Made by a program: the position numbers and the translations under genes. The notes beneath the pieces were generated by a model, which worked only from the letters and a program-made list of their open reading frames with translations, was not told where the DNA came from and searched no databases. Shown piece by piece: positions 11,666 through 63,150 of a stretch of DNA of 64,000 nucleotides. The number at the start of each line of letters is the position of its first letter. Position 1 is the first letter of the stretch. Source of the DNA: Elusimicrobiota bacterium (GTDB taxonomy: Bacteria; Elusimicrobiota; Elusimicrobia; Elusimicrobiales; UBA9959); contig JAJUJA010000004.1 of the NCBI GenBank assembly GCA_029267355.1, positions 1,404 to 65,403 on the forward strand, in the 5' to 3' direction.

Positions 11666-12326
11666 ATAAGGCCTCCGCCAGTATAAGATCTTCCGGGGTG
11701 GTTATTTTAAAATTTTCATAAACGCTTTCAACCGCCGCCGCTTTTATTGAAAGCTTTTCAAGAAGCTGAGAATCATCGGTTAAATCCGTATTTGACTCGG
11801 GCAAAGAAAGCATTTTTTCAAAAATTTCTCTTTTGTAGCATTGAGGCGTTTGAACCGCCGCATGAGTTTTCCTGTCTATGGTTGAAACTATTTTTCCGCC
11901 TGAGATCTTTTTTACGGTGTCTTTAAGCGCAACGACAGGCGCTGACGCTTTGAATTTTGAGGCTGCCTTGATAAGTTTTTCTATGAGCGCGGCGTTTGCG
12001 AAAGGCCTAGCACCGTCATGAACGCAAATAATACCGGCGTCAGTTGAGACAGCTTCATAAGCATTCTTAAGCGATGCCATTCTGGTGTCTCCGCCGAGAA
12101 CGACTTTCACTCTGTCAAAGCCGGCAAAAAGCTTTTTGCCTTTGGAGAAATTATTCTTTGAGAAAGCTATGACAATTTCCTCAATAAACCTGCAGCTGAG
12201 AAAATTGGACGCCGTAATCAGTATAGCGGGCTTGCCGCCGATAAGAGCAAACTGTTTGTCCCTGCCGAAACGTCTGGCGGAGCCGGCCGCCAGTATTAAA
12301 GCGGCGGATCTAAGACTATTTGCCAT
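11622..12326 (-). CDS. ispD: 2-C-methyl-D-erythritol 4-phosphate cytidylyltransferase
   Basis: ALILAAGSARRFG..DKQF, VHDGARPF and conserved context upstream of ispF. Confidence 0.9.
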   Translation of the reverse strand: MANSLRSAALILAAGSARRFGRDKQFALIGGKPAILITASNFLSCRFIEEIVIAFSKNNFSKGKKLFAGFDRVKVVLGGDTRMASLKNAYEAVSTDAGIICVHDGARPFANAALIEKLIKAASKFKASAPVVALKDTVKKISGGKIVSTIDRKTHAAVQTPQCYKREIFEKMLSLPESNTDLTDDSQLLEKLSIKAAAVESVYENFKITTPEDLILAEALYEKNSCKKNSKKTK

Positions 12327-13311
12327 TGTTCTTCTTTACTTTTGTAAAGATTATTCTTCCCTGTGAAGTTTGAAGTATTGACTGCACTATAACTTCCATT
12401 TTTCTTCCTATGCAGTCCCTGCCGTCCTCAACAACCACCATGGTGCCGTCGTCAAGATAGCCGACGCCCTGGCTTTTTTCCTTGCCTTCCTTCATAACGA
12501 ATATCTGCATATCCTCTCCGGGAAGCACTACCGGCTTTAGGGCAGCTGACAGATCATTGACATTCAAAACAGGGACATTTTCAAGCGCGCCGAGCTTATT
12601 TATGTTAAAATCAACGGTTATTATGGAGCATTTCAGCTCCTTGGCTATTTTTACCGTCTTGGAAGAGACATCGGACAGTTCTTTAATATCTCTGTCTATT
12701 ATTTTAAAAGGCAGGGCCTTTGTTTCTCTAAGTCTTGCCAATATATCCAGGCCCCTTCTTCCTCTGGCCTTTTCCATCGGGTCCTGATATTCCGTAAGCT
12801 TATGAAGATGGTCAAGAATAAATCTCGGCACCACCAGAGAGCCTGAGATAAAGCCTGTTTCGCAAATATCCAAAATCCTGCCGTCTATAATGCAGCTTAA
12901 ATCAAGAAGCTTTATTGTCCTGCCTACTTTCTTTCCGAGCTGAGAAATATCCGTATCAAGCTCATCAAGCTCGCTGACTTTTTTAACCCCTATAACCATG
13001 CCGAGTAAAGCCAGCACATATTTGAGTATGAAATTAAATCTGGACCACATAGCGCTGAGAGAGTCATTGTCTATCTGATAAACGGTGTAATCAAACAGTT
13101 TAGCAACTATTATACCCACAGCGGCTCCCATTATGCCTACAATGAGAACCGAAAGTTTGGTGTTTTCAAGCACATATTCGGCGGCGACCATCAGAAGCCC
13201 TATGAATAAGCCGAGCAAAATTCCGTTCAAGTTTTGAGAAATTTGAAAATAGGCGACTATAGGAGTTCCGGCAACGGCCAGTATCCTGAATATCCATATT
13301 ATCATAAGCAC
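12316..13311 (-). CDS. Membrane-anchored PIN/TRAM domain protein (YacL-like)
   Basis: Four N-terminal TM segments, a PIN-like core and a C-terminal TRAM-like beta domain. It sits in the radA-yacL-ispD-ispF order known from Firmicutes. Confidence 0.7.
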   Translation of the reverse strand: MLMIIWIFRILAVAGTPIVAYFQISQNLNGILLGLFIGLLMVAAEYVLENTKLSVLIVGIMGAAVGIIVAKLFDYTVYQIDNDSLSAMWSRFNFILKYVLALLGMVIGVKKVSELDELDTDISQLGKKVGRTIKLLDLSCIIDGRILDICETGFISGSLVVPRFILDHLHKLTEYQDPMEKARGRRGLDILARLRETKALPFKIIDRDIKELSDVSSKTVKIAKELKCSIITVDFNINKLGALENVPVLNVNDLSAALKPVVLPGEDMQIFVMKEGKEKSQGVGYLDDGTMVVVEDGRDCIGRKMEVIVQSILQTSQGRIIFTKVKKNNGK

Positions 13312-23004: not shown

Positions 23005-24087
23005 TTAAAAAAACGGCTCAATAGCATAACCCTTTGAACCGCCAAGCAGAGCCTTTGTATTGGCTCCAACCTGCCCCGGCATAAGCCAGGCCGGACCGGC
23101 AGGCTCTATGAGGACATATTCCAGTCCTTCATATCTGACGAATAAATCTCCCTTGGCCGGAATCCTTCTTAAACCCATAAGATAATGCCCCGGCACCGAT
23201 ATTCCGACCATTTTCACTCCGCTCCAATTGCCAAGTATTGAAGCAAGCACTCCCGTTTTGGTATCGCAATCTCCCCAGCCGCTTATAACTGCCTTAAGCG
23301 GAGGCAATATGCCGCAGGTATGAAGAGAGCCTTCTTTTGAAGGCGGGATCTTATATTTTACCGCAGTCTGCACCATTGAAACCGCAGCGCCTACGGTATC
23401 CTCCGAAGAATATCGTCTGGCCTTTGATATATTTTGTATAGCCAGGGCCAGCGGCTTAAGCTCATTTATATTCCTTCTCACTATGTTCGGCATATCGCAA
23501 ACCACTATATTGCCTTCTCTTAAAGCCAGGCCGCGCTTGTAAAAAAGAGCCCTGAGCCTGGTATCATATTCCTCGCTGACCCTCTCTGCCGCCTTATCGG
23601 CCTCGCCGCGGCCGCCCTTAGCATATGCTTTTTTCCATTCCTCCTGCAAGGTTTTTTGACGCCACTGTTTAAGGGTCTCATATTCCTCGTCTCTATAGCC
23701 GTAATTTTTAAGATATTCAGCGAGATATTTTTGAGAAACAGAAAAAGAGACAGAAAGTCTGTCTTTGTTGAAATTTATAAATTCATACCTTGCCTTCAAA
23801 AGGCCTGCGCCTGCTGATATTTTTTGGGCAGTTCCGGTCTCCTTTTTATTTTTCAAAACCTCGGCATTGCCTGTTTCTTCGGCTTCATCCTCTTCCCCGG
23901 CATCCTCATCTTCTCCGTCCCGGGCATCTTCTTCCTCTTCGTTTTCATAGTCCCCGCCGTAAAGCAAATCTCCGCCGCAGGCAGGCAAATTTAACTTTTC
24001 CTGCCATTGAAAAGCCAAATAAAAATTCATGATAAAAGACAAAAAGCCGAGAAAAGCGAATGCATATATTTGAGTTGAGTTTTTCAT
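23005..24087 (-). CDS. Membrane-anchored protein with an acidic linker and a transglutaminase-like (Cys-His-Glu) putative peptidase domain
   Basis: N-terminal TM, then a D/E-rich stretch (EEEEDARDGEDEDAGEEDEAEE). The C-terminal region reads GWGDCDTKTGVLASIL .. PGHYLMGL .. YVLIEP, resembling a transglutaminase-core triad. Confidence 0.45.
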   Translation of the reverse strand: MKNSTQIYAFAFLGFLSFIMNFYLAFQWQEKLNLPACGGDLLYGGDYENEEEEDARDGEDEDAGEEDEAEETGNAEVLKNKKETGTAQKISAGAGLLKARYEFINFNKDRLSVSFSVSQKYLAEYLKNYGYRDEEYETLKQWRQKTLQEEWKKAYAKGGRGEADKAAERVSEEYDTRLRALFYKRGLALREGNIVVCDMPNIVRRNINELKPLALAIQNISKARRYSSEDTVGAAVSMVQTAVKYKIPPSKEGSLHTCGILPPLKAVISGWGDCDTKTGVLASILGNWSGVKMVGISVPGHYLMGLRRIPAKGDLFVRYEGLEYVLIEPAGPAWLMPGQVGANTKALLGGSKGYAIEPFF

Positions 24088-24138: not shown

Positions 24139-24540
24139 TCAAAGTTCGGCAAATAAAAAGGAAATCAGGGATATATAAGCTATGACAGCGATTATATGTC
24201 TGGGCAAAATGCCGTATGAAAAAATAAAAATGATGCCGGCTATTGATAATGCCGAAAAAAGAACGCGCTTTGCAGCCGGAATGCTGAAAAAAATCTCATC
24301 CCGGCTGAAAATTGAAATCAGCGGCTCTGCGGGCAATTTGTTTATTCTCAGATACAGAGACCTTATAGACCACAGGAAAAATCCTGCAAACAGGGCGCAG
24401 ACAAAGATCAGAAAGGCAAAAAGAATAATTTTGTTCAGAGCAGGCATTTCGCCGGCATTTCTTAAATAAAGCTGAAAACCGTAAACACCGCAAGTCACAG
24501 CAAAGGAAAACTTAAAAAGGCTCCAGGCCCTGCTTTTCAT
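24139..24540 (-). CDS. Four-TM membrane protein, unknown function
   Basis: Hydrophobic profile only. 4-nt overlap with the upstream kinase gene. Confidence 0.55.
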   Translation of the reverse strand: MKSRAWSLFKFSFAVTCGVYGFQLYLRNAGEMPALNKIILFAFLIFVCALFAGFFLWSIRSLYLRINKLPAEPLISIFSRDEIFFSIPAAKRVLFSALSIAGIIFIFSYGILPRHIIAVIAYISLISFLFAEL

Positions 24541-26015
24541 TTTTTTCTCTCTTCTATTTCCCTGTGAGAAAGCTCTACTCTTACTCCCTTAACAGCACGT
24601 AAAGCGGCAGCCATTTTCTCTGCCATAAAAACCGAGCGGTGTCTGCCGCCTGTGCAGCCGAAAGAAACAGAAAGATCCGTGAAATTCCTTGAGAGATAAT
24701 TATCTACGGAAAGCATAACAAGCGAATGCGCATTTTCAAAAAATTTTTCAGCCTGAGGGCTTTGACTAAGATAAGAGGCCACCTGAGGGTCCCTGCCGGT
24801 CATTTCTTTGTACTTCTCCTCTCTGCCGGGATTAGGCAGACATCGGCAATCAAAAACAAAGCCGCCGTTATGTCCGCTGAAATCGTCAGGAATCCCATTC
24901 TTATATGAAAAACTTTTAATCCTTACCGTAAGCCCGAGTTTTTTGGCCTGAAAATTCCTCAAATATGTTGAGGAAACTATCCTTTCAAAAACTTTTGTAA
25001 GCTCCGGAAGTTTTACAGGAAGGCTGGCATTAGACAAAAGCCATTCAATATTTTTTATGACATAAGGCACGCTTTGAAGAAAATGCGTTTTCTTCTCATA
25101 AAAGCCTCTAAGGCCGTACGCTCCCATGGCCTGCATAAGCCTTATATAAACGAAAGGGTAGTAAAAATTAAGGAACTCCTCCCTATCAACAGCCGATTTT
25201 ATCTCCGGCAGAGTCAGATACCAGTCAAGCAGGCGCTCTCTTGCTTCTATGGTCAGGTCCGCCTTGGCATCAAATAAAAGAGAAGCCACATCGTATTGAA
25301 GAGCTCCTTTGCGGCCGCCCTGATAATCTATAAAAAAAACGTCTCCGTTTTTTACCATTATATTTCTTGACTGGAAATCTCTGTAAAGGAAAAAATCGCT
25401 TTTAGCCGAAACCAGCAGATCGGCAAGTACATTATAGTCATTTTCAAGTTTTTGCTCATTGAAGGCTATGCCTGCCAGCTTTACGAAATAATATTTGAAA
25501 TAATTCAGGTCCCACATTATGGACTGTCTGTCAAAAGCGGCTCTCGGATAGCAAAGTTTGAGGTCCAGATCCCTTATGCCGAGGGTCTGAAATCTGGCCA
25601 GCTGAGCCAGCGCCTTTTTGTAAAGCTCAAGGGCCTCTTTGGGAAACGAATCGTCCTTTCTCAATGATATCAGCACATCAAAAAGCGTGCTGTCGCCAAG
25701 ATCAGTCTCAAGATAAACTTTATTGGCCTCATCAAAGGCGTAAATCTCCGGCACAGGCAGTCCGAGAGATTTAAAATGCCTCGAAAAACCGACAAAAGCC
25801 CTGTTTTCAAGTTTATCCGGCCCGCAAACCCCGACGGCAGAAATACCTGGCGAGCTTAATCTGAAAAGTTTCCTGTTTGAGCCGTCAGCTTTCAAATCTG
25901 AAATTCTTGACGGCTCTTTGCGGTAAACGGAGACAAAAAGGGCGGCAAGGTTTTTGCAGTACTTTTCCTTATCGCTATTGTCCATATCAGGCCTGGGAAC
26001 GCTCTTGCTGCTCAA
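24537..26015 (-). CDS. Fusion protein: AmgK/APH-type sugar kinase domain plus RapZ C-terminal domain
   Basis: The N-terminal ~340 aa have an APH-fold catalytic loop LYRDFQSRNIMV and FIDYQGG, as in the AmgK/COG3178 family. The C-terminal ~140 aa align closely with the E. coli RapZ C-domain (FDCRCLPNP..MTGRD.., GCTGGRHRSVFMAEKMA). Confidence 0.75.
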   Translation of the reverse strand: MSSKSVPRPDMDNSDKEKYCKNLAALFVSVYRKEPSRISDLKADGSNRKLFRLSSPGISAVGVCGPDKLENRAFVGFSRHFKSLGLPVPEIYAFDEANKVYLETDLGDSTLFDVLISLRKDDSFPKEALELYKKALAQLARFQTLGIRDLDLKLCYPRAAFDRQSIMWDLNYFKYYFVKLAGIAFNEQKLENDYNVLADLLVSAKSDFFLYRDFQSRNIMVKNGDVFFIDYQGGRKGALQYDVASLLFDAKADLTIEARERLLDWYLTLPEIKSAVDREEFLNFYYPFVYIRLMQAMGAYGLRGFYEKKTHFLQSVPYVIKNIEWLLSNASLPVKLPELTKVFERIVSSTYLRNFQAKKLGLTVRIKSFSYKNGIPDDFSGHNGGFVFDCRCLPNPGREEKYKEMTGRDPQVASYLSQSPQAEKFFENAHSLVMLSVDNYLSRNFTDLSVSFGCTGGRHRSVFMAEKMAAALRAVKGVRVELSHREIEERKK

Positions 26016-31211: not shown

Positions 31212-31364
31212 AAAAGCCGGACTATTCCCGGTTAAACGGCTTTCCCCTTAGGTCCTATTTTCTTATAGGCTGAAAAAAATAATTATAAATACCTTTTGAA
31301 CCTTATATATCCCTTCCGGATTGACTAAAATTTAATCATGCAAGATAAAATGAACGGAGGATTA

Positions 31365-32789
31365 ATGAAAAAAGCGCTGGTTATAGCTGCAGTTTTACTC
31401 TCCTGCTTTTCACAAATTAAAGCGAGCGAATTCAATCTTGAGTCTATGAATGCCAAAGACATTATGGCCGCAGATTCTCAAACAAAAGGCATCTTTGATT
31501 TCATAAAACCGGGCAAGGAAGAGCCTATGCCTGTAAAGGAATGGACGGTCATAGTCTTTATGAACGCCAAAAATGACCTTTCCGAAAGCTCTTTGTTCGG
31601 GCTTGTCGGCAAATGGGCCGAAAAGGATATAGATGAAATGAAAAAAGTCGGCACCACGGATAAAGTCAATGTGGTAGTTGAGCACGGCTCAAAAGGCAAA
31701 GGCGCAAAAAGAATGCTTATTCTTAAAAAATCTTCAGGCCTTGGCGGTTTTTTCGCCTCGGGAGAGAAGGTTTATCTCCAGGATCCGAAAGCCGATATGG
31801 GCGATTATAAAAGAGTAATAGATTTCGTCAAATGGTCAAAACAGAATTTCCCCGCCAAGAAATATATGCTTATAATATGGAATCACGGCCTCGGCTGGAT
31901 AGACCCCAATATGCAGGAACATACAGCCGGCACAGGCACTTCCGACAAAGGCATAGCTTTTGACGATGAAACCAAAAATTACATAAGAACAAAACAGCTC
32001 GGGGAAATACTTAAGGCCTCAGGATATATAGATGTATTTGCCATGAACGCCTGCCTTATGCAGATGGCTGAAGTCGCCTACGAAATGAAAGGATATACCG
32101 GCCTTATAGTCGGCTCCGAAGAAACAATGCTGGCTCAGGGCTTTGATTATGAAAAACTTCTTAATTTCATTAACGGCAATCCGAATTTCTCAAAAAAACA
32201 GATAAGCGACTTTTTCATGAACTGGTATAAACAGTTTTATGCACAGGGAATGAGCGTTGGACCTCTTACAATGCCTTTAGACAATATCGCCTCAACGCTT
32301 TCAACCATAGAGCCTGCGGCTCTGGCCGAATTGCCGCAATATCTCAATTATTTCGCCGATCAGGTTATGAAAAACGATGAGAAAGAAGCCGTCAAAGCGG
32401 CTATCCCTGCCGTAATAAGATTTACAAGCATAGCTGACCCGGCCAAAGACAAAAAGAAGCTTATAGCTCCCTATGTAGATCTTTACGATTTCGCCAGGAT
32501 AGTCGGCGAAAACGCTTCCAATGCCAACACCAGACAAGCCGCCGAGTATCTGATGGGCTTCGTAAAAAACAAGCTTGTCATATCCTCAGTGGGCATAAAC
32601 AGGGATGCTGAAAACAATTATGACTATACTAAGGTCGGCGGCGTTGCCATAAATATGACAATGAAAATAAAGGAAGTTCCGCCTCAGCTGGCCCTGATAT
32701 ATGAAACAAAGTATCAGGACTTAACTCTCTCTAAAGACTCAATGTGGGACGAGTTCATAACCTGGACCGATTCAGTCTGGTCTAAATAA
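31365..32789 (+). CDS. Secreted clostripain-family (C11, clan CD) cysteine peptidase
   Basis: Signal peptide MKKALVIAAVLLSCFSQIKA. His motif IWNHGLGW and Cys motif FAMNACLMQ. The start is trimmed to ATG 31365 after GGAGG. Confidence 0.8.
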   Translation: MKKALVIAAVLLSCFSQIKASEFNLESMNAKDIMAADSQTKGIFDFIKPGKEEPMPVKEWTVIVFMNAKNDLSESSLFGLVGKWAEKDIDEMKKVGTTDKVNVVVEHGSKGKGAKRMLILKKSSGLGGFFASGEKVYLQDPKADMGDYKRVIDFVKWSKQNFPAKKYMLIIWNHGLGWIDPNMQEHTAGTGTSDKGIAFDDETKNYIRTKQLGEILKASGYIDVFAMNACLMQMAEVAYEMKGYTGLIVGSEETMLAQGFDYEKLLNFINGNPNFSKKQISDFFMNWYKQFYAQGMSVGPLTMPLDNIASTLSTIEPAALAELPQYLNYFADQVMKNDEKEAVKAAIPAVIRFTSIADPAKDKKKLIAPYVDLYDFARIVGENASNANTRQAAEYLMGFVKNKLVISSVGINRDAENNYDYTKVGGVAINMTMKIKEVPPQLALIYETKYQDLTLSKDSMWDEFITWTDSVWSK

Positions 32790-34470: not shown

Positions 34471-35262
34471 ATGGCAGACAATGATTTTGTCTTTGCCGCG
34501 CAGGAAAAACTGCCGCCGGCAAAAATAATGGCGCAGGCATTAGCTCAAAGTCAGGGCATGATATTCTATGAAGCAATGGCCATAGTTGTAAAAAATTACG
34601 GTTTTCTCGGCTTCAATCTCTCTAAAGAAAAGTCCAAAGCTCTTATTGGTGCCTGCCTGGCCTGCGATATAAAGGCCGTCTCAATGCCTTCTGAAAGTAT
34701 GCCGAAGCTGGCCCCGGCCTTGGAAATAAAAAAAGCCGATTTTTCAGGGCAATATCTGATTTATGAAAATCAGGGCCTTCAATTGAAGGCGGAACTAGAA
34801 AAATTAAAAGTAATCGCCTATGCTCCAATTTCCAGAGAAACAATCAAGGTCATAAAGGAAAAGCAGGGGCCGGGAGCCGGCGAAAAGGCCATGCGTCTTG
34901 GCATAATGATGGCCACAGGACTGCCTCTGGGACTGGGCAAAAGCAAGGAAGTTTCAAGGGAAATACATCAAAGCGAAACCTTGCTTTATCTGGATATGAT
35001 ATTTGACGAAGAGCTTAGACTGAGAATAAATTCGGATAATTTTGATTTTTCCTGCCTTAAAGAACAGAAGGGCTACTCATCGCATACAAACTTTAAGAAT
35101 CTCTGCCTTAAACTGGCTGAAACTTCACCAAAAGCGTGGAAAAACAGCGCCCTTTTTGATCTACTTGATGGCGCCATGGCGCCGTCCTTCAAATATGAAA
35201 CGCTTTCAGACCTTGAGAAAGAGGAAAAAAGGCTGATTCTGGCTCAGATGAAAAACTTCTGA
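34471..35262 (+). CDS. Hypothetical cytoplasmic protein
   Basis: 263-aa ORF with no recognisable motif and no obvious SD. It contains one Gly-rich hydrophobic patch (MRLGIMMATGLPLGLG). Confidence 0.5.
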   Translation: MADNDFVFAAQEKLPPAKIMAQALAQSQGMIFYEAMAIVVKNYGFLGFNLSKEKSKALIGACLACDIKAVSMPSESMPKLAPALEIKKADFSGQYLIYENQGLQLKAELEKLKVIAYAPISRETIKVIKEKQGPGAGEKAMRLGIMMATGLPLGLGKSKEVSREIHQSETLLYLDMIFDEELRLRINSDNFDFSCLKEQKGYSSHTNFKNLCLKLAETSPKAWKNSALFDLLDGAMAPSFKYETLSDLEKEEKRLILAQMKNF

Positions 35263-35386
35263 AAACGGCCAAAATCCTTATCAAAAATGCATATAGGCCC
35301 TTTGTCCTCTATTTTAGCAGGCCGCATCAACCCTTGACATGTCAAGCATATTGATACATACTATTCTTGTGCCCTTTGGAGGCCTT

Positions 35387-36211
35387 ATGAAAAACGCAAT
35401 TATCTCCCTCATATTATGGCTCGCAGTCCAGCCTTTATTTTCTCAGGATTTCGGTTCTTTTTCCATTCCCGACAACCTCAATCTCCCCGCTCCTGTTATG
35501 GACATAGACAAGAACGCGCCTAAAGCGGCTGAAATTCCCTGCTATATGTCAAAGTCCGGCTGTTCAACGGTAAGCGGCTTTTACATCATAAAGAAATGGG
35601 TTCTAAAATACGGGGGCGACTGCCCTGAAATAACTTCAGGCAGAGGCATACTTGAGGCCTGTAAGGATATTAAGGCCAATTACCCCGGCTCGCATCCAAC
35701 CTCTGAAAGAGACGCAGTTTGCGATGCGGTGCACGATAAATTGCAGCCGAACTGGATGCATACAAGGGCTTCCATAGAAATGAGCCGTTCCATATGCAAA
35801 TCCCAAAAAAGCTTCGGCTGGTTTGAAGACAGAATAGAAATAGAGTTTGAAAAATCCGGAAGGATTTCCTCCGACGGAGAGATAGTCAGGGTAACGGCAA
35901 AGAAAGAAGCCGGCAACGGCGATTATAAATCATACAAAGGCTCGGCGCAAAATATCTTCAATATGGATATAGAAGTGACATGCTCCAGAAACGGCAATGA
36001 ATGGAAAAATGACACTCTTTCCATAAGGATAGATAAGCCTTATGCATCCTCTCAAAGCGGCAGCTTCAGCTTCTCCGTCGGGCCTTCAGTGGCGAAATTT
36101 TCAGGCGGCTATACTCAGGGGGTAACACATACCTATCCATACGGCGTATGGCAGAAGCTTAACATAAAAGGCGTATTCTGCGGCAGCGACATAGATCAGA
36201 AAGATAAATAA
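35387..36211 (+). CDS. Hypothetical secreted Cys-containing protein
   Basis: The start is trimmed to ATG 35387 (GGAGG SD). Signal peptide MKNAIISLILWLAVQPLFSQ. 10 Cys residues in the mature part; no recognisable family. Confidence 0.6.
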   Translation: MKNAIISLILWLAVQPLFSQDFGSFSIPDNLNLPAPVMDIDKNAPKAAEIPCYMSKSGCSTVSGFYIIKKWVLKYGGDCPEITSGRGILEACKDIKANYPGSHPTSERDAVCDAVHDKLQPNWMHTRASIEMSRSICKSQKSFGWFEDRIEIEFEKSGRISSDGEIVRVTAKKEAGNGDYKSYKGSAQNIFNMDIEVTCSRNGNEWKNDTLSIRIDKPYASSQSGSFSFSVGPSVAKFSGGYTQGVTHTYPYGVWQKLNIKGVFCGSDIDQKDK

Positions 36212-54417: not shown

Positions 54418-55527
54418 TCAAATCTTTTTTCTGTAAATTCTGTATTTTTTGTAAACAAAGCCCCCCACAGCTTTGATGACCGAGTTTATTTTATCATTAT
54501 CTTCCAGGGTCCAGGATAACTCGCCCCAATCCCAGCCCAGCTCTTTCGCGCATTCTATGGACTTTTTTATCATTAAAAGCTCAAGTCCGCGGTTTCTGTA
54601 TTCGCTTTTCACGCCCAAAGCCAGCATTCTGCCGCTTTTTATTGAGAAAAGCATCTTCCACAGGAAAACCGGCAGATTAAACGGAGTAAAAGAGCCCTTT
54701 AAAGGCCTCAGCGGTATATTAAAATCGGGCAGTATAAGGCAAAAGGCGGCAGGGTCTTCTTTTACGCCGGCAAAGAACAGGTATTGCGGTTTAAGCAAAG
54801 GCTTAAGGTCCTGCGCCATTCTTTCTATCTCCGCCTGGGTCATCGGCACAAACCCCCAGTTTTTCTCCCAGGCCTTATTGTAAATTTCTTTGACCTTCTC
54901 AAGCTCTCTGTCTATGTTTTTAATATCGGCCAAATATACCTTCACCGTCCCGTCGCGCATAGCCCTTTGAGCTATCTTTTCAAACCTCTCGGGCAGGCCG
55001 CCTGAGGTTATAAATTTGAAGGCAAACAGGTCCTTCTCTTTTTCATAACCGGCTTTTTTGGCCAATTCATTATAGTAAGGGAAATTATAAGGCATCATAA
55101 TGACATTGGGCGAATCAAAACCCTCAAGAAGCATGCCCCAGGTTTCATTGCTTGAAGGATTGGCCGGCCCCCTCACAATATCCATGCCTTTTTCCCTTAG
55201 CCAGTCTTCAGCCGCCTTAAAAAGCGCGCCGGCAGCCTGCTCATCGTTTATGCAGTCAAAAAAGCCGAAAAAACCGCATTTTTCATCATGGAAAGAATTA
55301 TGATTGTGATTTATTATCGCAGCTATCCTGCCGGCCATTTTGCCATCGCTTGAATAGGCGGAAAAAAGCTTTCTTTCAGCATGGAACCAGAAAGGATGAG
55401 AAGGCGATAAAAGCTTCATTACATCCTTTTTAAGCTCGCCTGTCCAATATGGACTTTCGGCATAAAGGGCGTAAGGGAAAGCGGCAAAACTTTCCAGGTC
55501 TGTATTCTCTCTTACAATAAATGGCAT
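54418..55527 (-). CDS. Large (~370 aa) GNAT-superfamily acyltransferase-like protein
   Basis: C-terminal GNAT-like core (..MLALGVKSEYRNRGLELLMIKKSIECAKELG..). ATG 55527 lies 2 nt after the stop of the upstream AOS gene. Confidence 0.55.
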   Translation of the reverse strand: MPFIVRENTDLESFAAFPYALYAESPYWTGELKKDVMKLLSPSHPFWFHAERKLFSAYSSDGKMAGRIAAIINHNHNSFHDEKCGFFGFFDCINDEQAAGALFKAAEDWLREKGMDIVRGPANPSSNETWGMLLEGFDSPNVIMMPYNFPYYNELAKKAGYEKEKDLFAFKFITSGGLPERFEKIAQRAMRDGTVKVYLADIKNIDRELEKVKEIYNKAWEKNWGFVPMTQAEIERMAQDLKPLLKPQYLFFAGVKEDPAAFCLILPDFNIPLRPLKGSFTPFNLPVFLWKMLFSIKSGRMLALGVKSEYRNRGLELLMIKKSIECAKELGWDWGELSWTLEDNDKINSVIKAVGGFVYKKYRIYRKKI

Positions 55528-55529
55528 TC

Positions 55530-56735
55530 TCAAACCGCGTGAGGGGTTTTTTTCTTTACTATCTTTCTGTAATAGCTCTCAAATATATCTAATGCCCTGT
55601 CCAGCTGCTCTCTGGTGTGTGAGGCGGTGACAACCACTCTCATAAGAGTTCTCTTGGGCGGTACAGCCGGGCTGACCACAGGATTAGTGAAAATACCCTC
55701 ATCAAAAAGGGCGCGCCAAAGCATGAAGGTTTTCTCATTGTCGCCTATGAGTATGGGGATTATGGGCGTATTCGTATGGCCGGTATTGCAGCCCATTTTC
55801 TTGAATCTTTCAAGCAAATAATTGGAATTTTCCCAGAGTTTCTCCCTTCTCTGCGGCTCTTCTTTTATTATGTCTATGGCTTTGGAAATGGAAGCCACGC
55901 AGGAAGGCGGCAGAGCGGCAGAAAAGATCATTGAACGCGACATATGCCTTATGTAATGTATTATCTTTTCATCTCCGACAACAAAACCGCCGACAGAAGC
56001 GAAGGTTTTTGAGCAGGTGCCGACTATCAGATCAACATCCTTATGATCCAGCCCGAAATGTTCGCAGGTGCCGCGGCCGTTCTTGCCCATAACGCCGGTA
56101 GCGTGAGCGTCATCTACTATAAGTCTCGCAGAATGCCTTTTGCATATTTTGACTATTTCAGGAAGCGGGGCTATATCGCCTTCCATTGAGAAAACGCCGT
56201 CAACTATGACAAGTTTTCCGCTGTCCTGCGGCACTTTGGAAAGGACTTTATCAAGGTCTGCAGGGTCATTGTGCTTAAATCTCTTTATTTCGGCGCCGCT
56301 GAGCTTGCAGCCGTCAAGTATGCTGGCATGGTCAAGCTTGTCAACTATTACGGTATCGCCTTTCTGGGCCAAAGCGCTTACCACGCCCAGATTCATCTGA
56401 TAGCCGGTAGCATATATCAGACCGGCTTCCCTTTGCTTGAATTCAGCCAATTTTCTTTCAAGCTCTTCATGAAGAACCGTATTTCCGTTCAAAAATCTTG
56501 AGCCGGCCACGCCGGTGCCGTACTTTTCTATGGCCATGGAAGCTGCGGCCTTCATTCTCGGGTCATTGGCCAGACCGAGATAATTATTTGAGCCGAACAT
56601 TATGAATTTTCTGCCGCCTATATAGACTTCCGGAGCCTGCTCTGATTCAAGCGCCTTAAAATATGGATAAATCCCCTTCTCTTTCAATTCATGAACTATG
56701 TTAAAACCGTAGCATTTTTCAAAGATATCTTTCAT
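55530..56735 (-). CDS. PLP-dependent alpha-oxoamine synthase, serine palmitoyltransferase-like
   Basis: GIYPYF..E..Q..EV..GGRKFIMFGSNNYLGL, DHASILDG, DDAHATG and PLP-Lys GTCSKTFASVGGFV. This is closer to the SPT pattern (GTFSKS..GGF) than to the BioF or Kbl patterns. Confidence 0.65.
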   Translation of the reverse strand: MKDIFEKCYGFNIVHELKEKGIYPYFKALESEQAPEVYIGGRKFIMFGSNNYLGLANDPRMKAAASMAIEKYGTGVAGSRFLNGNTVLHEELERKLAEFKQREAGLIYATGYQMNLGVVSALAQKGDTVIVDKLDHASILDGCKLSGAEIKRFKHNDPADLDKVLSKVPQDSGKLVIVDGVFSMEGDIAPLPEIVKICKRHSARLIVDDAHATGVMGKNGRGTCEHFGLDHKDVDLIVGTCSKTFASVGGFVVGDEKIIHYIRHMSRSMIFSAALPPSCVASISKAIDIIKEEPQRREKLWENSNYLLERFKKMGCNTGHTNTPIIPILIGDNEKTFMLWRALFDEGIFTNPVVSPAVPPKRTLMRVVVTASHTREQLDRALDIFESYYRKIVKKKTPHAV

Positions 56736-56750
56736 AATGTTATAATTTTA

Positions 56751-57239
56751 TTATTTACCGCGCGTTTTTTCAATGATTTTACTTGTTGAACGGCCTTTTA
56801 GAAGAGGTATTATCTCAACTTTGCCGGAAAACTCGGCCCCGACGACCTTTTCAGGCGAATAATCGCCGCCTTTGACCAGAATATCCGGTTTTATGGCTTT
56901 TATGAGTTCATAAGGAGTATCCTGCGAAAAACCGGTAACATAATCCACGCAGGCAAAAGCGGCTAAAACAGCGGCTCTGTCCTTGAAACTGTTGACCGGC
57001 CTGCCGGGGCCTTTCAATCGTCTCACTGAAGCGTCGGAATTAAGACCGACTATGAGAATATCGCCGAAGGATTTCGCTTTTTCAAGGCTTTTGACATGGC
57101 CGGCATGTATTATGTCAAAACAGCCGTTCGTGAAAACAACTTTAAGGCCGTCCTTTTTGGCCTTTTTTGCCAGAGAAGAAGCCCTTGAGGACTTTATTAT
57201 CTTATTTTTTGAATTCATCGCTGGCCATAAAATTTTCAA
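56751..57239 (-). CDS. hldC: D-glycero-beta-D-manno-heptose-1-phosphate adenylyltransferase (RfaE domain II type cytidylyltransferase fold)
   Basis: [47 protein letters not shown] and GRSTSKII. Confidence 0.8.
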
Positions 57240-58563
57240 GAAATTTTGTATCTATATCGCCCGACATGAACTGAGGACTTCTCAGTATTTTCTCATGAGC
57301 GCCTAGAGTGGTTTTTATGCCCTCAACTTTAAATTCATCTATTGCTCTGAGAGATCTCGCTATGGCCTTATTTCTGTCAGGCGCCCATATTATCAGTTTT
57401 GCTATCATGCTGTCATAATAAACCGGCAATTCATAGCCGGCATAGACATGGGAATCTATTCTTATGCCGGGGCCGCCGGGCAATATCCACTCTTTAACCT
57501 TGCCGACCGAGGGCGCGAAATTATTGCGCCAGTCTTCCGCATTTACTCTGTGTTCTATTGAATGGCCCCTGAAATTATCGGCATCCTGCTGCGTTATTTC
57601 AAGTTTCTCGCCCATAGCAGCCAGGACCTGCTGCCTGACAAGGTCCGAACCGGAGATTGACTCCGTCACAGGATGCTCAACTTGAAGCCGGGTATTTACT
57701 TCCATAAAATAAAAGTCGCCGTTCTTGTCCAGCAAAAATTCCACGGTGCCGGCGCCAAGGTAATCGGCGCTGTCGGCCAGATTGGCGGCCGCTTTCTGAA
57801 GTTTTTTTCTAAGCTGAGCATTCACGGCCGGAGAAGGAGTCTCCTCTATAAGCTTCTGATTTCTTCTCTGAACCGAACAGTCCCTTTCAGGAAAAGCTAC
57901 GGTATTTCCAAAGCTGTCCCTTATGAACTGTATTTCTATATGCCTCGGCTTTTCTATGAACTTCTCAAAATAAATCTCTCCGTTCCCGAAAGCAGCCAGA
58001 GCTTCGCTTCTGGCCATTTCGCATTCATGCAGAAGCTTGTCCTTATCATAAACTATTCTTATGCCCCTGCCGCCGCCGCCGGCAGCCGCCTTTATCATAA
58101 CCGGGAAGCCGATTTTCTCGGCCTCTTTCATAAAATCTTTCTCAACGCAGCCGTCTGTGCCGGGCGTTATAGGCACGCCGGCCTTTTTTGCTATAGAACG
58201 GGCAGTGGCCTTATGGCCAAGCAGTTTTATTGAGTCCGGCGCAGGCCCGATAAAAATTATTCCGTTTTTTGAACAGGCCCTGGAAAAATCAGCATTCTCG
58301 GAAAGAAAGCCGTAGCCCGGATGTACGGCGTCTGCCTTATGCGTGACAGCGGCCGAGATTATATTGTCTATTTTCAAATAGCTTTCTTTTGAGGGCGCGG
58401 GCCCTATGCAGACTGATTCGTCGGCCATTCTCACATGAAGCGAATTCCTGTCGCCTTCTGAATACACAGCCACGGATTTTATTCCCATCTCCCTTAAAGT
58501 TCTTATGACTCTCAAAGCTATTTCGCCCCTGTTGGCGATTAAAACCTTCCTTATTTCCTTCAT
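57202..58563 (-). CDS. accC: Biotin carboxylase
   Basis: [16 protein letters not shown], an ATP-grasp domain and ..[15 protein letters not shown].. Confidence 0.95.
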
Positions 58564-58576
58564 TTAACCTCCAGAA

Positions 58577-60196
58577 TTATTTTGAAACGGCTTTAACAGA
58601 GCCGGTCCAGAGATTTACCGAAGCCCTGTAAACTTCATTTTCTTCAAGTTTTTTATTTCTCTTATCGTATTTAACCTGAAATACATAGACCATGTAAATC
58701 GGGCCATCTTGTTTTTCGGCCTTCCATTCATCCTTGAAATAAAAGCTTTTTTTGGCGTCCTTGCCGTTAAGCGAGCTCAAAGCCGCGCTTCTCTGTTCCA
58801 AAACAGTCGGCGCATCAGGCGAAACTCTGGCCCTTTGGGCCATATTTACCGCCTCTGCTGAAACGTCCGAAGACAGGAAAGACTGCCTCTTAAGCGCCTC
58901 CTTCTTATTAATACCTTCCGGGCATACGGAAACCGCCGATTGTATATCGGATTCAGCGCTTTGGAAATCGCCAAGGCGCACATAGGCGTCCGCTCTGGAC
59001 ATAAGCAAAGGACACTTGTTTTTTAATGAAATGTCTTCAAAATTCAACAGCTCTTCATAGGCCTGAAGAGCATCCTGAAATCTGGCCATAAATCTCAAGC
59101 TGTCAGCGTAATAAAATGTAAACCAGAAAACCTCGTCTTTGCTGAAGCCCACAGGATATGAAGCCTGAGCGTCAAGCGTTCTTCTGCATGATTCAAGCGC
59201 CTTGTCATAAAGCCCCATTAGATACTCTGTATTACACAGATATCCGGAAGTTCTTGGGTCCATAGGATCGGTCAAATAAAGCTTCTGAGCCAGAAAAAGA
59301 GCCTGCGAGAAATCGCCTTTTCCTATTGCCTCGTCTATGGGCGCAAATAAATGCCATATATAAGGCCTTACCCATCTGTCATGCTCTCTGACAAAAGAGA
59401 TATAGTCTTCCTTCCAGGTTCCTGTGCCTTCCTTGAGCCAGTATTTCACTATGGCGCCTTCTTTCCCCATCTTAAAAACGGAAACATCCCTGAATTCCCA
59501 GCCGCCTTTGATCTGCGAATAGTAAGCGTCATTGTATTTGACATAATCTGTAAAAGGGCAGGTGAACTTTGAGTTATTTGAGAGATATGAATATGCCTGA
59601 GAATAATTTTTTTCGCTCAGGGCTGTCAAATATTTCCTTGCCGTCAAAACAAGCTTTATGCCCGGAATTTTCGGCGCGATAATAAGCCATGCAATCGAAA
59701 TGACTGCGATCAAAACCGCAAGATAAACGGCATACTTTGAAAGAGGGCTTTTTTTTATTTGCCCAGGTTTCGGCTTGTTTTCAGAGGTATTTTTTTTAGT
59801 TTCCAGCTCGGCCAGCTTGTCTTTCTCTCTTTTGGCGGCCTCAACTCTTTCGTCTTTATTTACTACTTTAGGCGCCTGATTTTGCGGATTGGCCTCCTGT
59901 TTTTTTCTGAAACTGTCGGCATGGCTCTCAACCGTTTCATTAATTGACTCAAATTCTATAACCATCTTAGGCGCTGCGGGTTTCTCAGGTTTATTTTCAT
60001 CCTGCGGCTCATTTTGAGGCGCGGCTTTCAAAGCCAGAAGAGAGCCGCAAGAGTCGCAGTAATTCTTCTCCACAGCGTTCACCGCCTCGCAATTTCCGCA
60101 AATTTTCACAAGCGAGGAGCCGCATTTAATGCAGGTATCGCTTATTATATTGGACTGATATCCGCATTTGGAACATCTTATTATTGAAGGTTTCAT
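58577..60196 (-). CDS. Double zinc-ribbon / single-TM / TPR-like protein, unknown function
   Basis: N-terminal CSKCG..C..CG, then CGNC..C..CG. A Lys/Glu/Pro-rich linker and TM (YAVYLAVLIAVISIAWLIIAP). The extracytoplasmic part has TPR-like helical repeats. Confidence 0.6.
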   Translation of the reverse strand: MKPSIIRCSKCGYQSNIISDTCIKCGSSLVKICGNCEAVNAVEKNYCDSCGSLLALKAAPQNEPQDENKPEKPAAPKMVIEFESINETVESHADSFRKKQEANPQNQAPKVVNKDERVEAAKREKDKLAELETKKNTSENKPKPGQIKKSPLSKYAVYLAVLIAVISIAWLIIAPKIPGIKLVLTARKYLTALSEKNYSQAYSYLSNNSKFTCPFTDYVKYNDAYYSQIKGGWEFRDVSVFKMGKEGAIVKYWLKEGTGTWKEDYISFVREHDRWVRPYIWHLFAPIDEAIGKGDFSQALFLAQKLYLTDPMDPRTSGYLCNTEYLMGLYDKALESCRRTLDAQASYPVGFSKDEVFWFTFYYADSLRFMARFQDALQAYEELLNFEDISLKNKCPLLMSRADAYVRLGDFQSAESDIQSAVSVCPEGINKKEALKRQSFLSSDVSAEAVNMAQRARVSPDAPTVLEQRSAALSSLNGKDAKKSFYFKDEWKAEKQDGPIYMVYVFQVKYDKRNKKLEENEVYRASVNLWTGSVKAVSK

Positions 60197-60197
60197 C

Positions 60198-60575
60198 TTA
60201 CTTTTTTTCTACAAAAAAGAGAGGAACGCCGAAATCAGCGCAATCGCCGTCTTTAAGGCATACTTTCGCCACTACCGCGTTATAGGGAGAAGTTATCTCC
60301 CTGTGCTCGCCGAGAACTTCCACATAGCCGAGTACTTCTCCCTTTTTAACTTCGTCGCCTTCTGATATGTTCAAAGTTCTGCCCGGCAGTGAACGCCTGA
60401 AAATACCGACGCATGGAGAGTTTATATTGGCCATTGAAGAAATGAAATTAAAGTTTCTTTCCTCTCTCCATACTTCGCAAAAGGAAAAACTTTCCTTTCC
60501 GTTCTTATAAACTATCTCTTCAAGATCTGTTTCTTTTGCCCATTTGGCAATTGACGCTATATCTTCAGCTTTCAT
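60198..60575 (-). CDS. BCCP-like biotinyl-domain protein lacking the biotinylated lysine
   Basis: It aligns with E. coli AccB (SPMVGTF..VG..V..G..LCIVEAMKMMNQIE). Here the sequence is SPCVGIF..EGDEVKKGEVLGYVEVLGEHREIT, so the AMK lysine position is Gly. Confidence 0.75.
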   Translation of the reverse strand: MKAEDIASIAKWAKETDLEEIVYKNGKESFSFCEVWREERNFNFISSMANINSPCVGIFRRSLPGRTLNISEGDEVKKGEVLGYVEVLGEHREITSPYNAVVAKVCLKDGDCADFGVPLFFVEKK

Positions 60576-60584
60576 AGAAATCTC

Positions 60585-61040
60585 CTACAAACCGGCCTGA
60601 GAAGGGTCAAAGGGCTTCAAAAGCAGTTTTGAAACCTTTATCACCGTTATTTTTTCCTTTTTCTTTTCTATCGGCTGCCAGTCAACGCAGATTACATTGG
60701 CATCCCTGGCCGCAAATTCAAGTATGACCTGTCTGCAGGCGCCGCGGGGCGTGGCAGATTTGGCCACCACGCAAATATCCCTTATTTTTTTCTCGCCCGC
60801 GCTTATCGCCTTGAATATAGCCGTTCTTTCAGCGCACATTGAAAGGCCGAAGGAGGCATTTTCCACATTGCAGCCGGTATATATCCTGCCTGATTCGCCA
60901 AGAACGGCGGCACCGACCGGGTATCTTGAATAAGGAGAATAAGAATGCTTCTGCGCCTTCTTGGCCAGCTCTACAAGCTTTTCCCTTATTTTTTTGTTCC
61001 AGTCTTTTCTTGATATTTTCTCTTTCTTGGCCATTTTCAA
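60585..61040 (-). CDS. cdd: Cytidine deaminase (homotetrameric type) with a variant zinc motif
   Basis: The CAERTAIF motif is present. The second motif reads TPRGACRQ instead of PCGACRQ (codon CGC at 60744-60746). Confidence 0.8.
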   Translation of the reverse strand: MKMAKKEKISRKDWNKKIREKLVELAKKAQKHSYSPYSRYPVGAAVLGESGRIYTGCNVENASFGLSMCAERTAIFKAISAGEKKIRDICVVAKSATPRGACRQVILEFAARDANVICVDWQPIEKKKEKITVIKVSKLLLKPFDPSQAGL

Positions 61041-61891
61041 CCTATTATCAGTTTGAGCTTTGCTTTTAGCGCCGCAGGGATATTATCCTTTGAAGTCAAA
61101 AGTGAAGTTTTCATTATATCGGCATAGCCGCAGCTGCATTTAATCTTGCTTAATTCAGGTATGACTTTAACCAGCAGCCGCCTTATATTTTCGACATTTT
61201 TATGCAGCGTTTCCAGAACCTTGGCCTGATCAACTTCCTCTCCTTCCTTCCAGCAATCATAGTCCGTGACAAGCGAAACCGGCGTATAATGCAGGCCTGC
61301 CTCTCTGGCGACTTTTGCTTCGGTAGCCACGGTCATGCCTATTATGGAATACCCCATTTTTCTGTGATATTCGCTTTCAGCCCTGGTTGAAAAGCCGGGC
61401 CCTTCCATACACACATATGTGCCGCCGAAATGCGATGTTATGCCGAGTTTTTTTGCATGTCCGAACATAAACTTGGAATACTCCATACAGAAAGGATGAG
61501 CCATAGGCACATGGGCCACAGCGCCGTCTCCGAAGAAAGTGGCTTTTCTGAGTTTCGTTTCATCCACGAACTGATCCGGGAAAACAAAATGCGAAGGCGC
61601 CAGCTTCTGCTGCAGAGAGCCTACTGCGCTTACCGAAATAACGGTCTCCACGCCCAGAGATTTAAGCGCCCATATATTTGCCTGATGCGGTATCTCCGAA
61701 GGCAGTATATTATGCTTTCTGCCGTGCCTGGGCACAAAGCAAACCGGGCAGCCGGAAATCTCTCCAAAAATCAGCTTATCCGAAGTTTTGCCGAAAGGCG
61801 TTTTAATGTTCAACTCCCTCTTATTCTTAAGTTCGTCTATCTGGTAAAGGCCGCTGCCGCCTATAACCGCTATTTTTGCGGATAATTTCAT
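61037..61891 (-). CDS. mtnP: S-methyl-5'-thioadenosine phosphorylase
   Basis: IAVIGGSGLY.., ..FVPRHGR.H.., ..IIGMT...E and the overall MTAP/PNP-family-2 pattern. Confidence 0.85.
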   Translation of the reverse strand: MKLSAKIAVIGGSGLYQIDELKNKRELNIKTPFGKTSDKLIFGEISGCPVCFVPRHGRKHNILPSEIPHQANIWALKSLGVETVISVSAVGSLQQKLAPSHFVFPDQFVDETKLRKATFFGDGAVAHVPMAHPFCMEYSKFMFGHAKKLGITSHFGGTYVCMEGPGFSTRAESEYHRKMGYSIIGMTVATEAKVAREAGLHYTPVSLVTDYDCWKEGEEVDQAKVLETLHKNVENIRRLLVKVIPELSKIKCSCGYADIMKTSLLTSKDNIPAALKAKLKLIIG

Positions 61892-61899
61892 TTTTCCTC

Positions 61900-63150
61900 C
61901 TAATTTTCAAAACCGGGATAAATCGGGAAACCGGCGCAGAATTTCTCCACTTTCTCCGATATGCCCTTAAGAGCGGTATCATTGTCCTTGTTCTTTACCG
62001 CCTCATCTATGAATCCGGCTATTATTTCCATTTCCTTCTCTTTCATTCCTCTTGTGGTAACAGCCGGCGTGCCTATCCTGACTCCGCTGGTTATCAGAGG
62101 CGGCTGCGGGTCATAAGGTATGGTGTTCTTATTCACCGTTATGCCGGCCTTGTCCAGCGCTTTTTCCGCGTCCTTGCCTGTCACATTTTTGCTTCTCAAA
62201 TCAAGCGAAAGTAAATGGCAGTCGGTTCCGCCCGAAACTATCCTGTAGCCGAGCGAAGCCAAGCAGGAGGCGAGTTTTTGAGCATTGGCCAGAACCTGCT
62301 TCTGATAGGCAACGAAATCCGGCTTAAGCGCCTCGCCGAAACAAACCGCTTTGGCAGCCACAGCATGCATAAGCGGCCCGCCCTGATTGCCGGGGAAATT
62401 CGTTCTGTCAACGGCTTTTGAATATGCCGCTTTTGAAAGTATCAGGCCGCCGCGGGGGCCTCTGAGAGTTTTATGCGTAGTGGTGGTCATTATATCGGCA
62501 TATTCGGCAGGAGAAGGATATACGCCTGCGGCTATAAGGCCGGCATAATGGGCTATATCCGTAACCATGAACGCCTTCCATCTGTCGGCCATTTTCTTTA
62601 TTCTGGCCCAATCCCATACTCTTGAATAATTGGAAGCGCCGGCCATTATAAGTCTGGGCCTTTCCTTCTCTACTATTTTCTCCATCTCATCGTAATCAAT
62701 GAGTTCGGTGTCCTTATTGACATTTATGGTGACTATTTTGAAATATCTGCCTGAAAAATTCAGCGGATGGCCGTGAGAAAGATGACCGCCGTGGGAAAGA
62801 TTAAGGCCAAGCACAGTATCGCCGGGATTGATAAGTGAAAGATAAGCCGTTATATTGGCCGTTGTGCCGCTATGGGGCTGGACATTGGCATGTTCGGCAT
62901 TGAAAAGCTTTTTGGCTCTTTCTATGGCTATTTTTTCGGCTACATCCACATGTTCACAGCCGCCGTAATATCTTTTACCCGGATAGCCCTCCGCATATTT
63001 ATTGGTCAAAACAGAGCCGAGAGCGTCAAGCACCGCTTTGGATGTATAGTTTTCAGAAGCTATAAGCTCAAGCTTATTCTGCTGTCTGAGCACCTCGCCC
63101 CTTACCGCTTCATAAATCTCTTTGTCCGCTTTTTTCAATTCCTCATACAT
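61900..63150 (-). CDS. glyA: Serine hydroxymethyltransferase
   Basis: LELIASENYTS and the PLP-Lys region TTTTHKTLRGPRGG. Confidence 0.95.
   Translation of the reverse strand: MYEELKKADKEIYEAVRGEVLRQQNKLELIASENYTSKAVLDALGSVLTNKYAEGYPGKRYYGGCEHVDVAEKIAIERAKKLFNAEHANVQPHSGTTANITAYLSLINPGDTVLGLNLSHGGHLSHGHPLNFSGRYFKIVTINVNKDTELIDYDEMEKIVEKERPRLIMAGASNYSRVWDWARIKKMADRWKAFMVTDIAHYAGLIAAGVYPSPAEYADIMTTTTHKTLRGPRGGLILSKAAYSKAVDRTNFPGNQGGPLMHAVAAKAVCFGEALKPDFVAYQKQVLANAQKLASCLASLGYRIVSGGTDCHLLSLDLRSKNVTGKDAEKALDKAGITVNKNTIPYDPQPPLITSGVRIGTPAVTTRGMKEKEMEIIAGFIDEAVKNKDNDTALKGISEKVEKFCAGFPIYPGFEN

Follow-up and report, generated by a model that had tools for sequence, protein, structure and literature searches.

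A biotin carboxyl carrier protein homologue without the biotin-acceptor lysine is encoded beside accC in an Elusimicrobiota bacterium

The locus and its BCCP-like protein

The DNA analysed is a 64-kb stretch (the window) of contig JAJUJA010000004.1, positions 1,404 to 65,403, from an Elusimicrobiota bacterium (GenBank assembly GCA_029267355.1). Close to its end lies a tightly packed gene cluster with accC, the gene for biotin carboxylase (BC). The fourth gene of this cluster encodes a 125-residue homologue of BCCP (biotin carboxyl carrier protein, the accB product) in which the biotin-acceptor lysine is missing and glycine stands in its place. This BCCP-like gene starts 9 nt after cdd and ends 1 nt before a gene for a 539-aa protein, which is separated from the start of accC by 13 nt. 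Open reading frame (ORF) calls and Pfam scans took in about 55 ORFs of the window. Coordinates are collected in Table 1.

Biotin is attached to the Lys of the (A/V)MKM motif, and the biotinyl lysine is the defining, normally invariant feature of BCCPs. The first-pass annotation, made from the sequence without database searches, had described a 125-aa protein with a biotinyl-domain fold. The ORF sequence is exactly as it was quoted there, and profile searches and structural models agree on the fold. The Pfam family Biotin_lipoyl (PF00364) matches residues 51-120 over profile positions 3-71 with 29.6 bits (gathering cut-off 22.1). The best NCBIfam match is the BCCP equivalog TIGR00531, but at 39.6 bits it is far under the cut-off of 115.2. 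A hidden Markov model (HMM) built from the C-terminal domains of 188 EAMK-type BCCPs found the BCCP-like ORF as its sole match in the window (E 1.3e-20).

An AlphaFold2 model run on a 40-sequence family alignment has a pLDDT (predicted local distance difference test) of about 95 over residues 48-125. Foldseek searches with it returned BCCP biotinyl domains as top matches: 5gu8, Arabidopsis BCCP1 (9a87), E. coli 1bdo and the BC-BCCP complex 4hr7. Target TM-scores were 0.87-0.91 for 1bdo, 4hr7 and 5gu8 (1bdo: 0.88, root-mean-square deviation 1.2 A; 4hr7: 0.91). The N-terminal segment was modelled as a helix (residues 3-14) and two strands (21-24 and 29-32) at a pLDDT of 60-73.

The second claim of the annotation, that the EAMKM motif has become EVLGE in a hairpin devoid of lysine, also stands. 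In a phmmer search against the PDB, VEVLGEHREI pairs with LEAMKMENEI of the Pyrococcus horikoshii BCCP. In a MAFFT alignment with E. coli AccB, whose sequence as used is consistent with the PDB matches, EVLGE lies opposite EAMKM and the N-terminal 35 residues lie opposite the AccB N-terminus. Gly89 occupies the lysine column in three independent alignments, and in the model L88-G89 form the tip of the hairpin of strands 81-87 and 90-95. The HMM alignment that had been proposed as a check places no other Lys at the modification site. The lysines of the protein are residues 2, 11, 14, 24, 27, 77, 78, 104, 108, 124 and 125, with none in residues 79-103. The residues equivalent to E119 and E147 of E. 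coli AccB are kept (E86 and D114). The window protein is thus a BCCP homologue without the biotin-acceptor lysine. Because the acceptor at the hairpin tip is replaced by glycine, it is predicted to be incapable of being biotinylated and of shuttling CO2.

Table 1. Positions of the features discussed, in window coordinates unless a locus is named
Feature	Position	Strand	Basis or remark
BCCP-like gene, accB-orthologous by position, lysine-less	60198..60575	-	ATG-start ORF, 125 aa; PF00364, family profile, canonical BCCP HMM
Shine-Dalgarno sequence AGGAG of the BCCP-like gene	60582..60586	-	about 6 nt upstream of start; overlaps the cdd stop codon
N-terminal segment, residues 1-35	60471..60575	-	motif W12, T16-D17-L18, E20; aligns with E. 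coli AccB N-terminal region
Biotinyl-domain fold, residues 48-125	60201..60434	-	AlphaFold2 and Foldseek
Beta-hairpin, residues 81-95, VLGYVEVLGEHREIT	60291..60335	-	strands 81-87 and 90-95; biotinyl-Lys site in real BCCPs; aligned to EAMKM hairpins
Gly89 codon GGC	60309..60311	-	biotinyl lysine column
539-aa double-zinc-ribbon, single-transmembrane, tetratricopeptide-repeat protein	58577..60196	-	Pfam DZR and TPR matches; between BCCP-like gene and accC
accC, biotin carboxylase, 453 aa	57202..58563	-	TIGR00514, PDB matches, catalytic residues
Co-directional cluster glyA, mtap, cdd, BCCP-like gene, 539-aa protein gene, accC, rfaE2-like gene, aminotransferase gene, 371-aa protein gene	54418..63150	-	gaps -38 to +15 nt
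Orphan lysine-less AccB-like protein P0047	L017 8001-8414		outside the Elusimicrobiota family
Orphan lysine-less AccB-like protein P0115	L018 8001-8432		outside the Elusimicrobiota family
Orphan lysine-less AccB-like protein P0088	L016 10001-10429		outside the Elusimicrobiota family

A family of short AccB-like proteins in Elusimicrobiota

At 53% identity or more to the window protein, a word-indexed search turned up no more than three other clusters. A profile search of 1.84 billion representatives, together with a profile/word search, uncovered a coherent family of proteins of 120-130 aa. All source names of its members are Elusimicrobiota, Elusimicrobia or Elusimicrobiaceae. In the sources the proteins go by 'hypothetical protein', 'biotin/lipoyl-containing protein' or 'BCCP subunit'. 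With a family-profile E of 1.6e-45, the window protein belongs to the family as a full-length member.

Conservation was scored in 40 family members and in a 58-sequence non-redundant set (60% identity filter). The N-terminal motif W-x3-T-D-L-x-E is nearly invariant (D17 and L18 invariant; W12, T16 and E20 nearly so), as is the C-terminus (Y)GQPLFFIEP, and several glycines are conserved. The window protein keeps W12, T16-D17-L18, E20, G57, G65, G79, G83, L119-F120 and a C-terminal PLFF(I/V)E, together with the family synteny. At residue 100 (60275-60277, minus strand) the window protein and its glycine-type sister have Ala, where 57 of the 58 non-redundant members have Gly. With Ala100 the glycine-type subclade departs from the family consensus at a second site.

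The lysine column is far from uniform. Across 149 family clusters it holds K in 62, S in 25, G in 24, A in 11, R in 7 and Q in 5, with other residues in the rest; 23 clusters have no Lys anywhere in the hairpin tip. In the 58-sequence set it is G in 19 sequences, K in 16 and R in 5. Few positions of the C-terminal domain vary more than 89-92 (2.8-3.9 bits). No AMKM motif occurs among the family hairpins listed. The non-family BCCP domains from the same search have Lys in the column in all but a few cases, mostly as EAMK. Most family members have Gly-x at the tip, whereas the subclade of the window protein has Leu-Gly.

On a neighbour-joining tree made with the tip columns left out, Lys and non-Lys states require 17 changes, where shuffled states take about 48. 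Some subclades (EVGKDFK, SHKK, MNK) have Lys throughout, and others (ETVSKQH and a GC-rich ETG-x group) lack it. Among the 87 non-Lys members, 43 have a Lys one residue downstream, so that modification might still occur in some of them; the window protein has no Lys there.

Lysine loss and selection among the closest relatives

By distance, the closest clade groups as ((window, L008), L011) and (L005, L001). Its hairpin, YVE[VI]LxE[YH][KR]EI, is otherwise kept, with x being K, K, R, G and G in the five sequences. The Gly89 site is encoded by AAA (Lys) in L011 and L005 and by AGG (Arg) in L001. Because orthologues on both sides of the clade carry Lys, this distribution implies that Lys was probably the ancestral state and that two independent losses occurred among five sequences. 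Each of them amounts to at least two nucleotide changes.

The L008 orthologue, which is 78% identical and comes from another sample and an independent assembly, encodes Gly at the same codon with GGT, whereas the window has GGC. The different codon makes a base-calling error unlikely. Public reads with the window sequence occur only in the bioreactor metagenomes X1 and X4, as low-coverage fragments, none of which spans 60309-60311.

Nei-Gojobori ratios of nonsynonymous to synonymous substitution (dN/dS) for the BCCP-like gene are 0.12 between the two glycine-type genes (window and L008; dS about 1.0) and likewise 0.12 between the Lys and Arg genes of L005 and L001. The comparison genes gave 0.09 (539-aa protein) and 0.04 (accC). 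Distances of the BCCP-like protein to the outgroup are 0.472 (Gly) versus 0.456 (Lys), and 0.456 (Arg) versus 0.456 (Lys). The corresponding AccC distances in lysine-less versus lysine-bearing lineages are 0.159 versus 0.148 and 0.146 versus 0.148. Purifying selection acts on the lysine-less gene, whose rate is raised little or not at all, and relaxed selection after lysine loss was rejected on the ratio of 0.12 and the relative-rate distances. The BCCP-like protein evolves much faster than AccC throughout the clade (within-clade identity 53-61% versus 84-92%).

Position beside accC

The loci compared were the window, 15 found by exact protein look-up and 73 from a metagenome scan. The family gene is found upstream of accC in nearly all of the approximately 70 distinct Elusimicrobiota loci long enough to show it; the exceptions in the whole set of compared loci are L084 and three non-family orphan loci. 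It either adjoins accC directly, in Elusimicrobiaceae-type loci, or is separated from it by one gene for a protein of 530-600 aa. The usual flanks are glyA-mtap-cdd upstream and the rfaE2-like, aminotransferase and 371-aa-type genes downstream. The tie to the nearby AccC that had been proposed for the window protein is therefore borne out as a gene order conserved in nearly all of these loci.

No second biotinyl domain came up in the 64-kb window, whether by six-frame motif scan, by Pfam scans or by two HMM searches. In about 0.96 Mb of related loci the only other one was in L090, an unrelated locus with a pyruvate-carboxylase-like ORF. Since it lies upstream of accC in nearly every locus and is the sole biotinyl-domain gene there, the window gene is the positional orthologue of accB and not an extra paralogue.

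AccC passes TIGR00514 (656 bits, cut-off 626.5) and matches solved biotin carboxylases in the PDB at up to E 2e-161. Fourteen of 15 checked E. coli BC catalytic positions are kept, including K116, K159, E276, E288, N290, R292, E296 and R338. The remaining one, H236, is Asn, as it is in the best-matching solved biotin carboxylase (9eb7). The catalytic residues are likewise kept in six relatives whose BCCP-like neighbours have K, R, S or G. AccC is thus predicted to be catalytically intact. A functional biotin carboxylase needs a biotinylated substrate, and with AccC residues intact whatever the lysine state, such a substrate would still be expected.

The rest of the carboxylase is not encoded nearby. 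Pfam scans of the window ORFs found no AccA, AccD, PccB-type carboxyltransferase, PycB/OadA or biotin ligase, and housekeeping genes only. Elusimicrobium minutum is listed with an ACC-type (acetyl-CoA carboxylase) BC and an acyl-CoA carboxylase beta subunit and without AccA or AccD (PMC3199775, Additional file 2), and a three-subunit AccC/AccB/PccB-type enzyme may exist in the phylum. Table 1 of that paper has the second '+' of Elusimicrobia under urea carboxylase, where Additional file 2 has the acyl-CoA carboxylase beta subunit. The mismatch is apparently a column slip, the row not having been re-ordered although the column order differs.

The inserted gene and other features of the window

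The 539-aa protein encoded between the BCCP-like gene and accC begins with two zinc ribbons, in which six Cys are invariant and two more nearly so. It also has a low-complexity linker, a single hydrophobic helix (approximately residues 156-185), a conserved domain of about 100 aa and tetratricopeptide repeats (TPRs). Another four Cys are invariant, and a beta region at the C-terminus is conserved. A single-sequence AlphaFold2 model is unreliable (pLDDT 49). About half of the related Elusimicrobiota loci have the gene, which is under purifying selection; Elusimicrobiaceae-type loci lack it. It is speculation that the protein tethers the BC complex or regulates it.

A correlation between lysine loss and the inserted gene was considered. 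With the gene there were 23 Lys and 8 non-Lys loci, and without it 12 and 17. The correlation was rejected because each lysine state is found both in loci that have the gene and in loci that do not, and because the search pattern biases the sample, which also contains a few non-family AccB loci.

Other products of the cluster are an mtap-like phosphorylase, an RfaE-II-like protein with a cytidylyltransferase fold, an aminotransferase and, at the 3' end, the 371-aa protein. Gene order is largely kept across the phylum and is the same in most related loci; some loci are without individual genes. The 371-aa protein (54418-55533, minus strand) has no Pfam match at E<=1e-6, yet it lies downstream of the aminotransferase in most related loci.

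Elsewhere in the window, a 492-aa protein (24537-26015, minus strand) is an unusual fusion of an APH-type phosphotransferase domain and a RapZ C-terminal domain. There are also genes for a papain-family (C1) cysteine protease, at 7529-8527 (minus), and for a clostripain-family (C11) protease, at 31338-32789 (plus). Besides the 371-aa protein, ORFs 4589-6349 (plus), 12316-13311 (minus), 23005-24087 (minus) and 34471-36211 (plus) have no Pfam match at the same threshold; the five products are 263-586 aa long.

Discussion

The window protein is best explained as a structural or regulatory subunit that is not biotinylated and associates with AccC, the real carboxyl carrier being encoded at another place in the genome (probability about 0.5). 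A non-carrier role is the most economical one because the lysine-less form is kept by purifying selection beside a BC that appears intact; AccC binding, this role and the existence of another carrier are what we infer. The gene would be the Elusimicrobiota form of accB, with a short product of about 125 aa in which an N-terminal segment resembling the biotin-carboxylase-binding one is followed by the biotinyl fold. In the window lineage the hairpin-tip lysine would then have been replaced by glycine. Co-transcribed with an intact AccC, the protein would most probably still dock on it through the N-terminal motif and the otherwise conserved hairpin, and act as a non-catalytic assembly or regulatory subunit. 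Carrying the carboxyl group would be left to another biotinylated protein encoded outside the window, for example a separate carrier or a carrier domain fused to a carboxyltransferase.

A broader version of this proposal is offered tentatively. Here the accB orthologue itself would have shed its lysine repeatedly (at least 17 switches in the family, two of them within the five closest relatives) while remaining under selection beside an intact BC. This would imply a biotin-independent function of AccB, a different real carrier, and an independently evolved counterpart of the plant BADC proteins. If true, the function of AccB without biotin would be an essential one, for instance in assembling or regulating BC or in tethering it to the membrane, and the zinc-ribbon/transmembrane/TPR protein might share in it; the real carboxyl carrier of these bacteria would be a different protein.

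Several observations weigh against a non-carrier subunit. The N-terminal domain is modelled with only moderate confidence. No second carrier, carboxyltransferase or BirA was found in the 64 kb or within 10 kb on either side of the relatives' genes, and the other carrier is hypothetical. Strict conservation of Lys in several subclades suggests that the original, and often the current, job of the family is biotin carrying. The lysine-less forms could then simply be recent loss-of-function variants.

An unlikely alternative is that the two genes are relics of a lost pathway. The sole carrier would have lost its lysine and ACC activity would have been abolished, with lipids or malonyl-CoA perhaps obtained from elsewhere; the BCCP-like protein and AccC would serve a biotin-independent function or decay slowly. 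The lack of any other biotinyl domain or carboxyltransferase in the window or the relatives' flanks fits this scenario, and so do the missing AccA and AccD in the E. minutum listing (PMC3199775). The AccC data do not fit: its dN/dS is 0.04, catalytic and biotin-handling residues are intact, and there is little or no acceleration in lysine-less lineages. The glycine state moreover predates a split at dS of about 1, and neither gene decays.

Orphan lysine-less AccB-like proteins of other bacteria, outside the family, also bear on the relic scenario. The genes for P0047 and P0115 lie directly after efp, and that for P0088 after rnpA. Efp-accB is the classic accB position; accC was not found in the fetched flanks of any of the three loci. 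The orphans share with the window protein an AccB-like N-terminus, the biotinyl fold and an almost identical E-V-L-G hairpin (YVEVLGILHEITSP versus YVEVLGEHREITSP in the window), but they are longer (about 140 aa), have a longer linker and score lower with the family profile. They look like AccB relics which have probably kept some biotin-independent role. The efp-linked ones support the relic scenario by indicating that AccB relics can outlive ACC. That AccB-like proteins persist without ACC is just as much an argument for the fold having a function independent of biotin. One of the loci, L018, also encodes FlaA, which suggests a spirochaete. Further metagenome proteins of AccB architecture (P0022, P0056, P0072, P0117, P0138, P0146, P0025, P0100, P0108) have N, R, G or H in the lysine column, in variants such as EAMN, EALN, EAMR, EALR and ALG, and one protein has two tandem lysine-less domains.

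It is rather improbable that the window protein is mainly a regulator of its own operon or of the AccC level and not a structural subunit. E. coli AccB autoregulates accBC by way of its N-terminal domain, conservation in the Elusimicrobiota family is highest in the N-terminal motif, and within a tightly packed operon the gene stands first in the part that contains accC. The biotinyl fold and most of the hairpin are strongly conserved too, however, which a function confined to the N-terminus would not require. No DNA- or RNA-binding feature is detectable.

Continued work as a carboxyl carrier, with biotin or another cofactor held at a different residue or non-covalently, is very improbable. The hairpin is kept except for its tip, as are the equivalents of E. 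coli E119 and E147, and about half of the non-Lys family members have the downstream Lys. The window protein has no such residue between positions 79 and 103. In E. coli BCCP, shifting the target Lys by one position reportedly abolishes biotinylation, and to our knowledge there is no precedent for a lysine-independent carrier. An assembly or sequencing artefact or a pseudogene can practically be dismissed: although the sequence is metagenome-derived and the codon itself is uncovered by public reads, the ORF is intact with a Shine-Dalgarno sequence, the orthologue from another sample also has Gly (as GGT), AAA to GGC takes at least three base changes, and dN/dS is 0.12.

Among known systems, the closest in functional logic may be the lysine-less BCCP paralogues of plants (BADC proteins), which are negative regulators of acetyl-CoA carboxylase. 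BADCs resemble BCCP but are not biotinylated, and they are found in association with biotin carboxylase, where they serve as non-catalytic subunits (PMC12706156, PMC11889953). The window protein shares with them a BCCP-like fold without the biotinyl lysine. BADCs are, however, additional paralogues alongside BCCP1 and BCCP2 in plastids, whereas the window gene is the positional orthologue of accB. That positional orthology and the lysine-bearing sister sequences argue for an origin independent of the BADC clade, and no evidence of shared ancestry with it was sought or found. Of the earlier suggestion of a BADC-like regulator, the non-carrier role is supported by purifying selection in a gene without the lysine; a regulator of the BADC kind is not, as the gene occupies the accB position and close orthologues keep Lys. 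Because they do, the gene represents a lineage of accB that lost its lysine and not a dedicated regulator family. "BADC-like" thus fits as an analogy, not as family membership.

E. coli AccB and the TIGR00531 proteins share with the window protein an N-terminal segment and a C-terminal biotinyl fold (1bdo and 4hr7 superpose at 1.2 A) and the position upstream of accC. The window protein differs in having no Pro/Ala-rich linker, in its length (125 aa versus 156 aa) and in reading EVLGE for EAMKM, and its locus differs from E. coli accBC by the zinc-ribbon/transmembrane/TPR gene in between. A three-subunit acyl-CoA carboxylase (AccC, AccB and a PccB-type subunit) needs a biotinylated AccB, which the window protein is predicted not to be, and there is no carboxyltransferase near its gene in the window.

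In the literature searched, non-biotinylated BCCP-like subunits were reported from plants only; bacterial queries returned a Chloroflexus BC-BCCP fusion besides, and nothing on Elusimicrobiota AccB was found. The outcome may be mundane, with a canonical BCCP elsewhere in the genome. Because annotation pipelines give some family members the label 'BCCP subunit', metabolic reconstructions from Elusimicrobiota metagenome-assembled genomes may credit these bacteria with a functioning acetyl-CoA carboxylase in error. For experiments, K, R and G variants occur naturally in near-identical backgrounds and form a ready series. A selected lysine-less accB beside an intact accC would mean either that a second, unrecognised carrier exists in the whole phylum or that AccB has a biotin-independent role of a type so far documented, in the literature searched, only for the plant BADC proteins.

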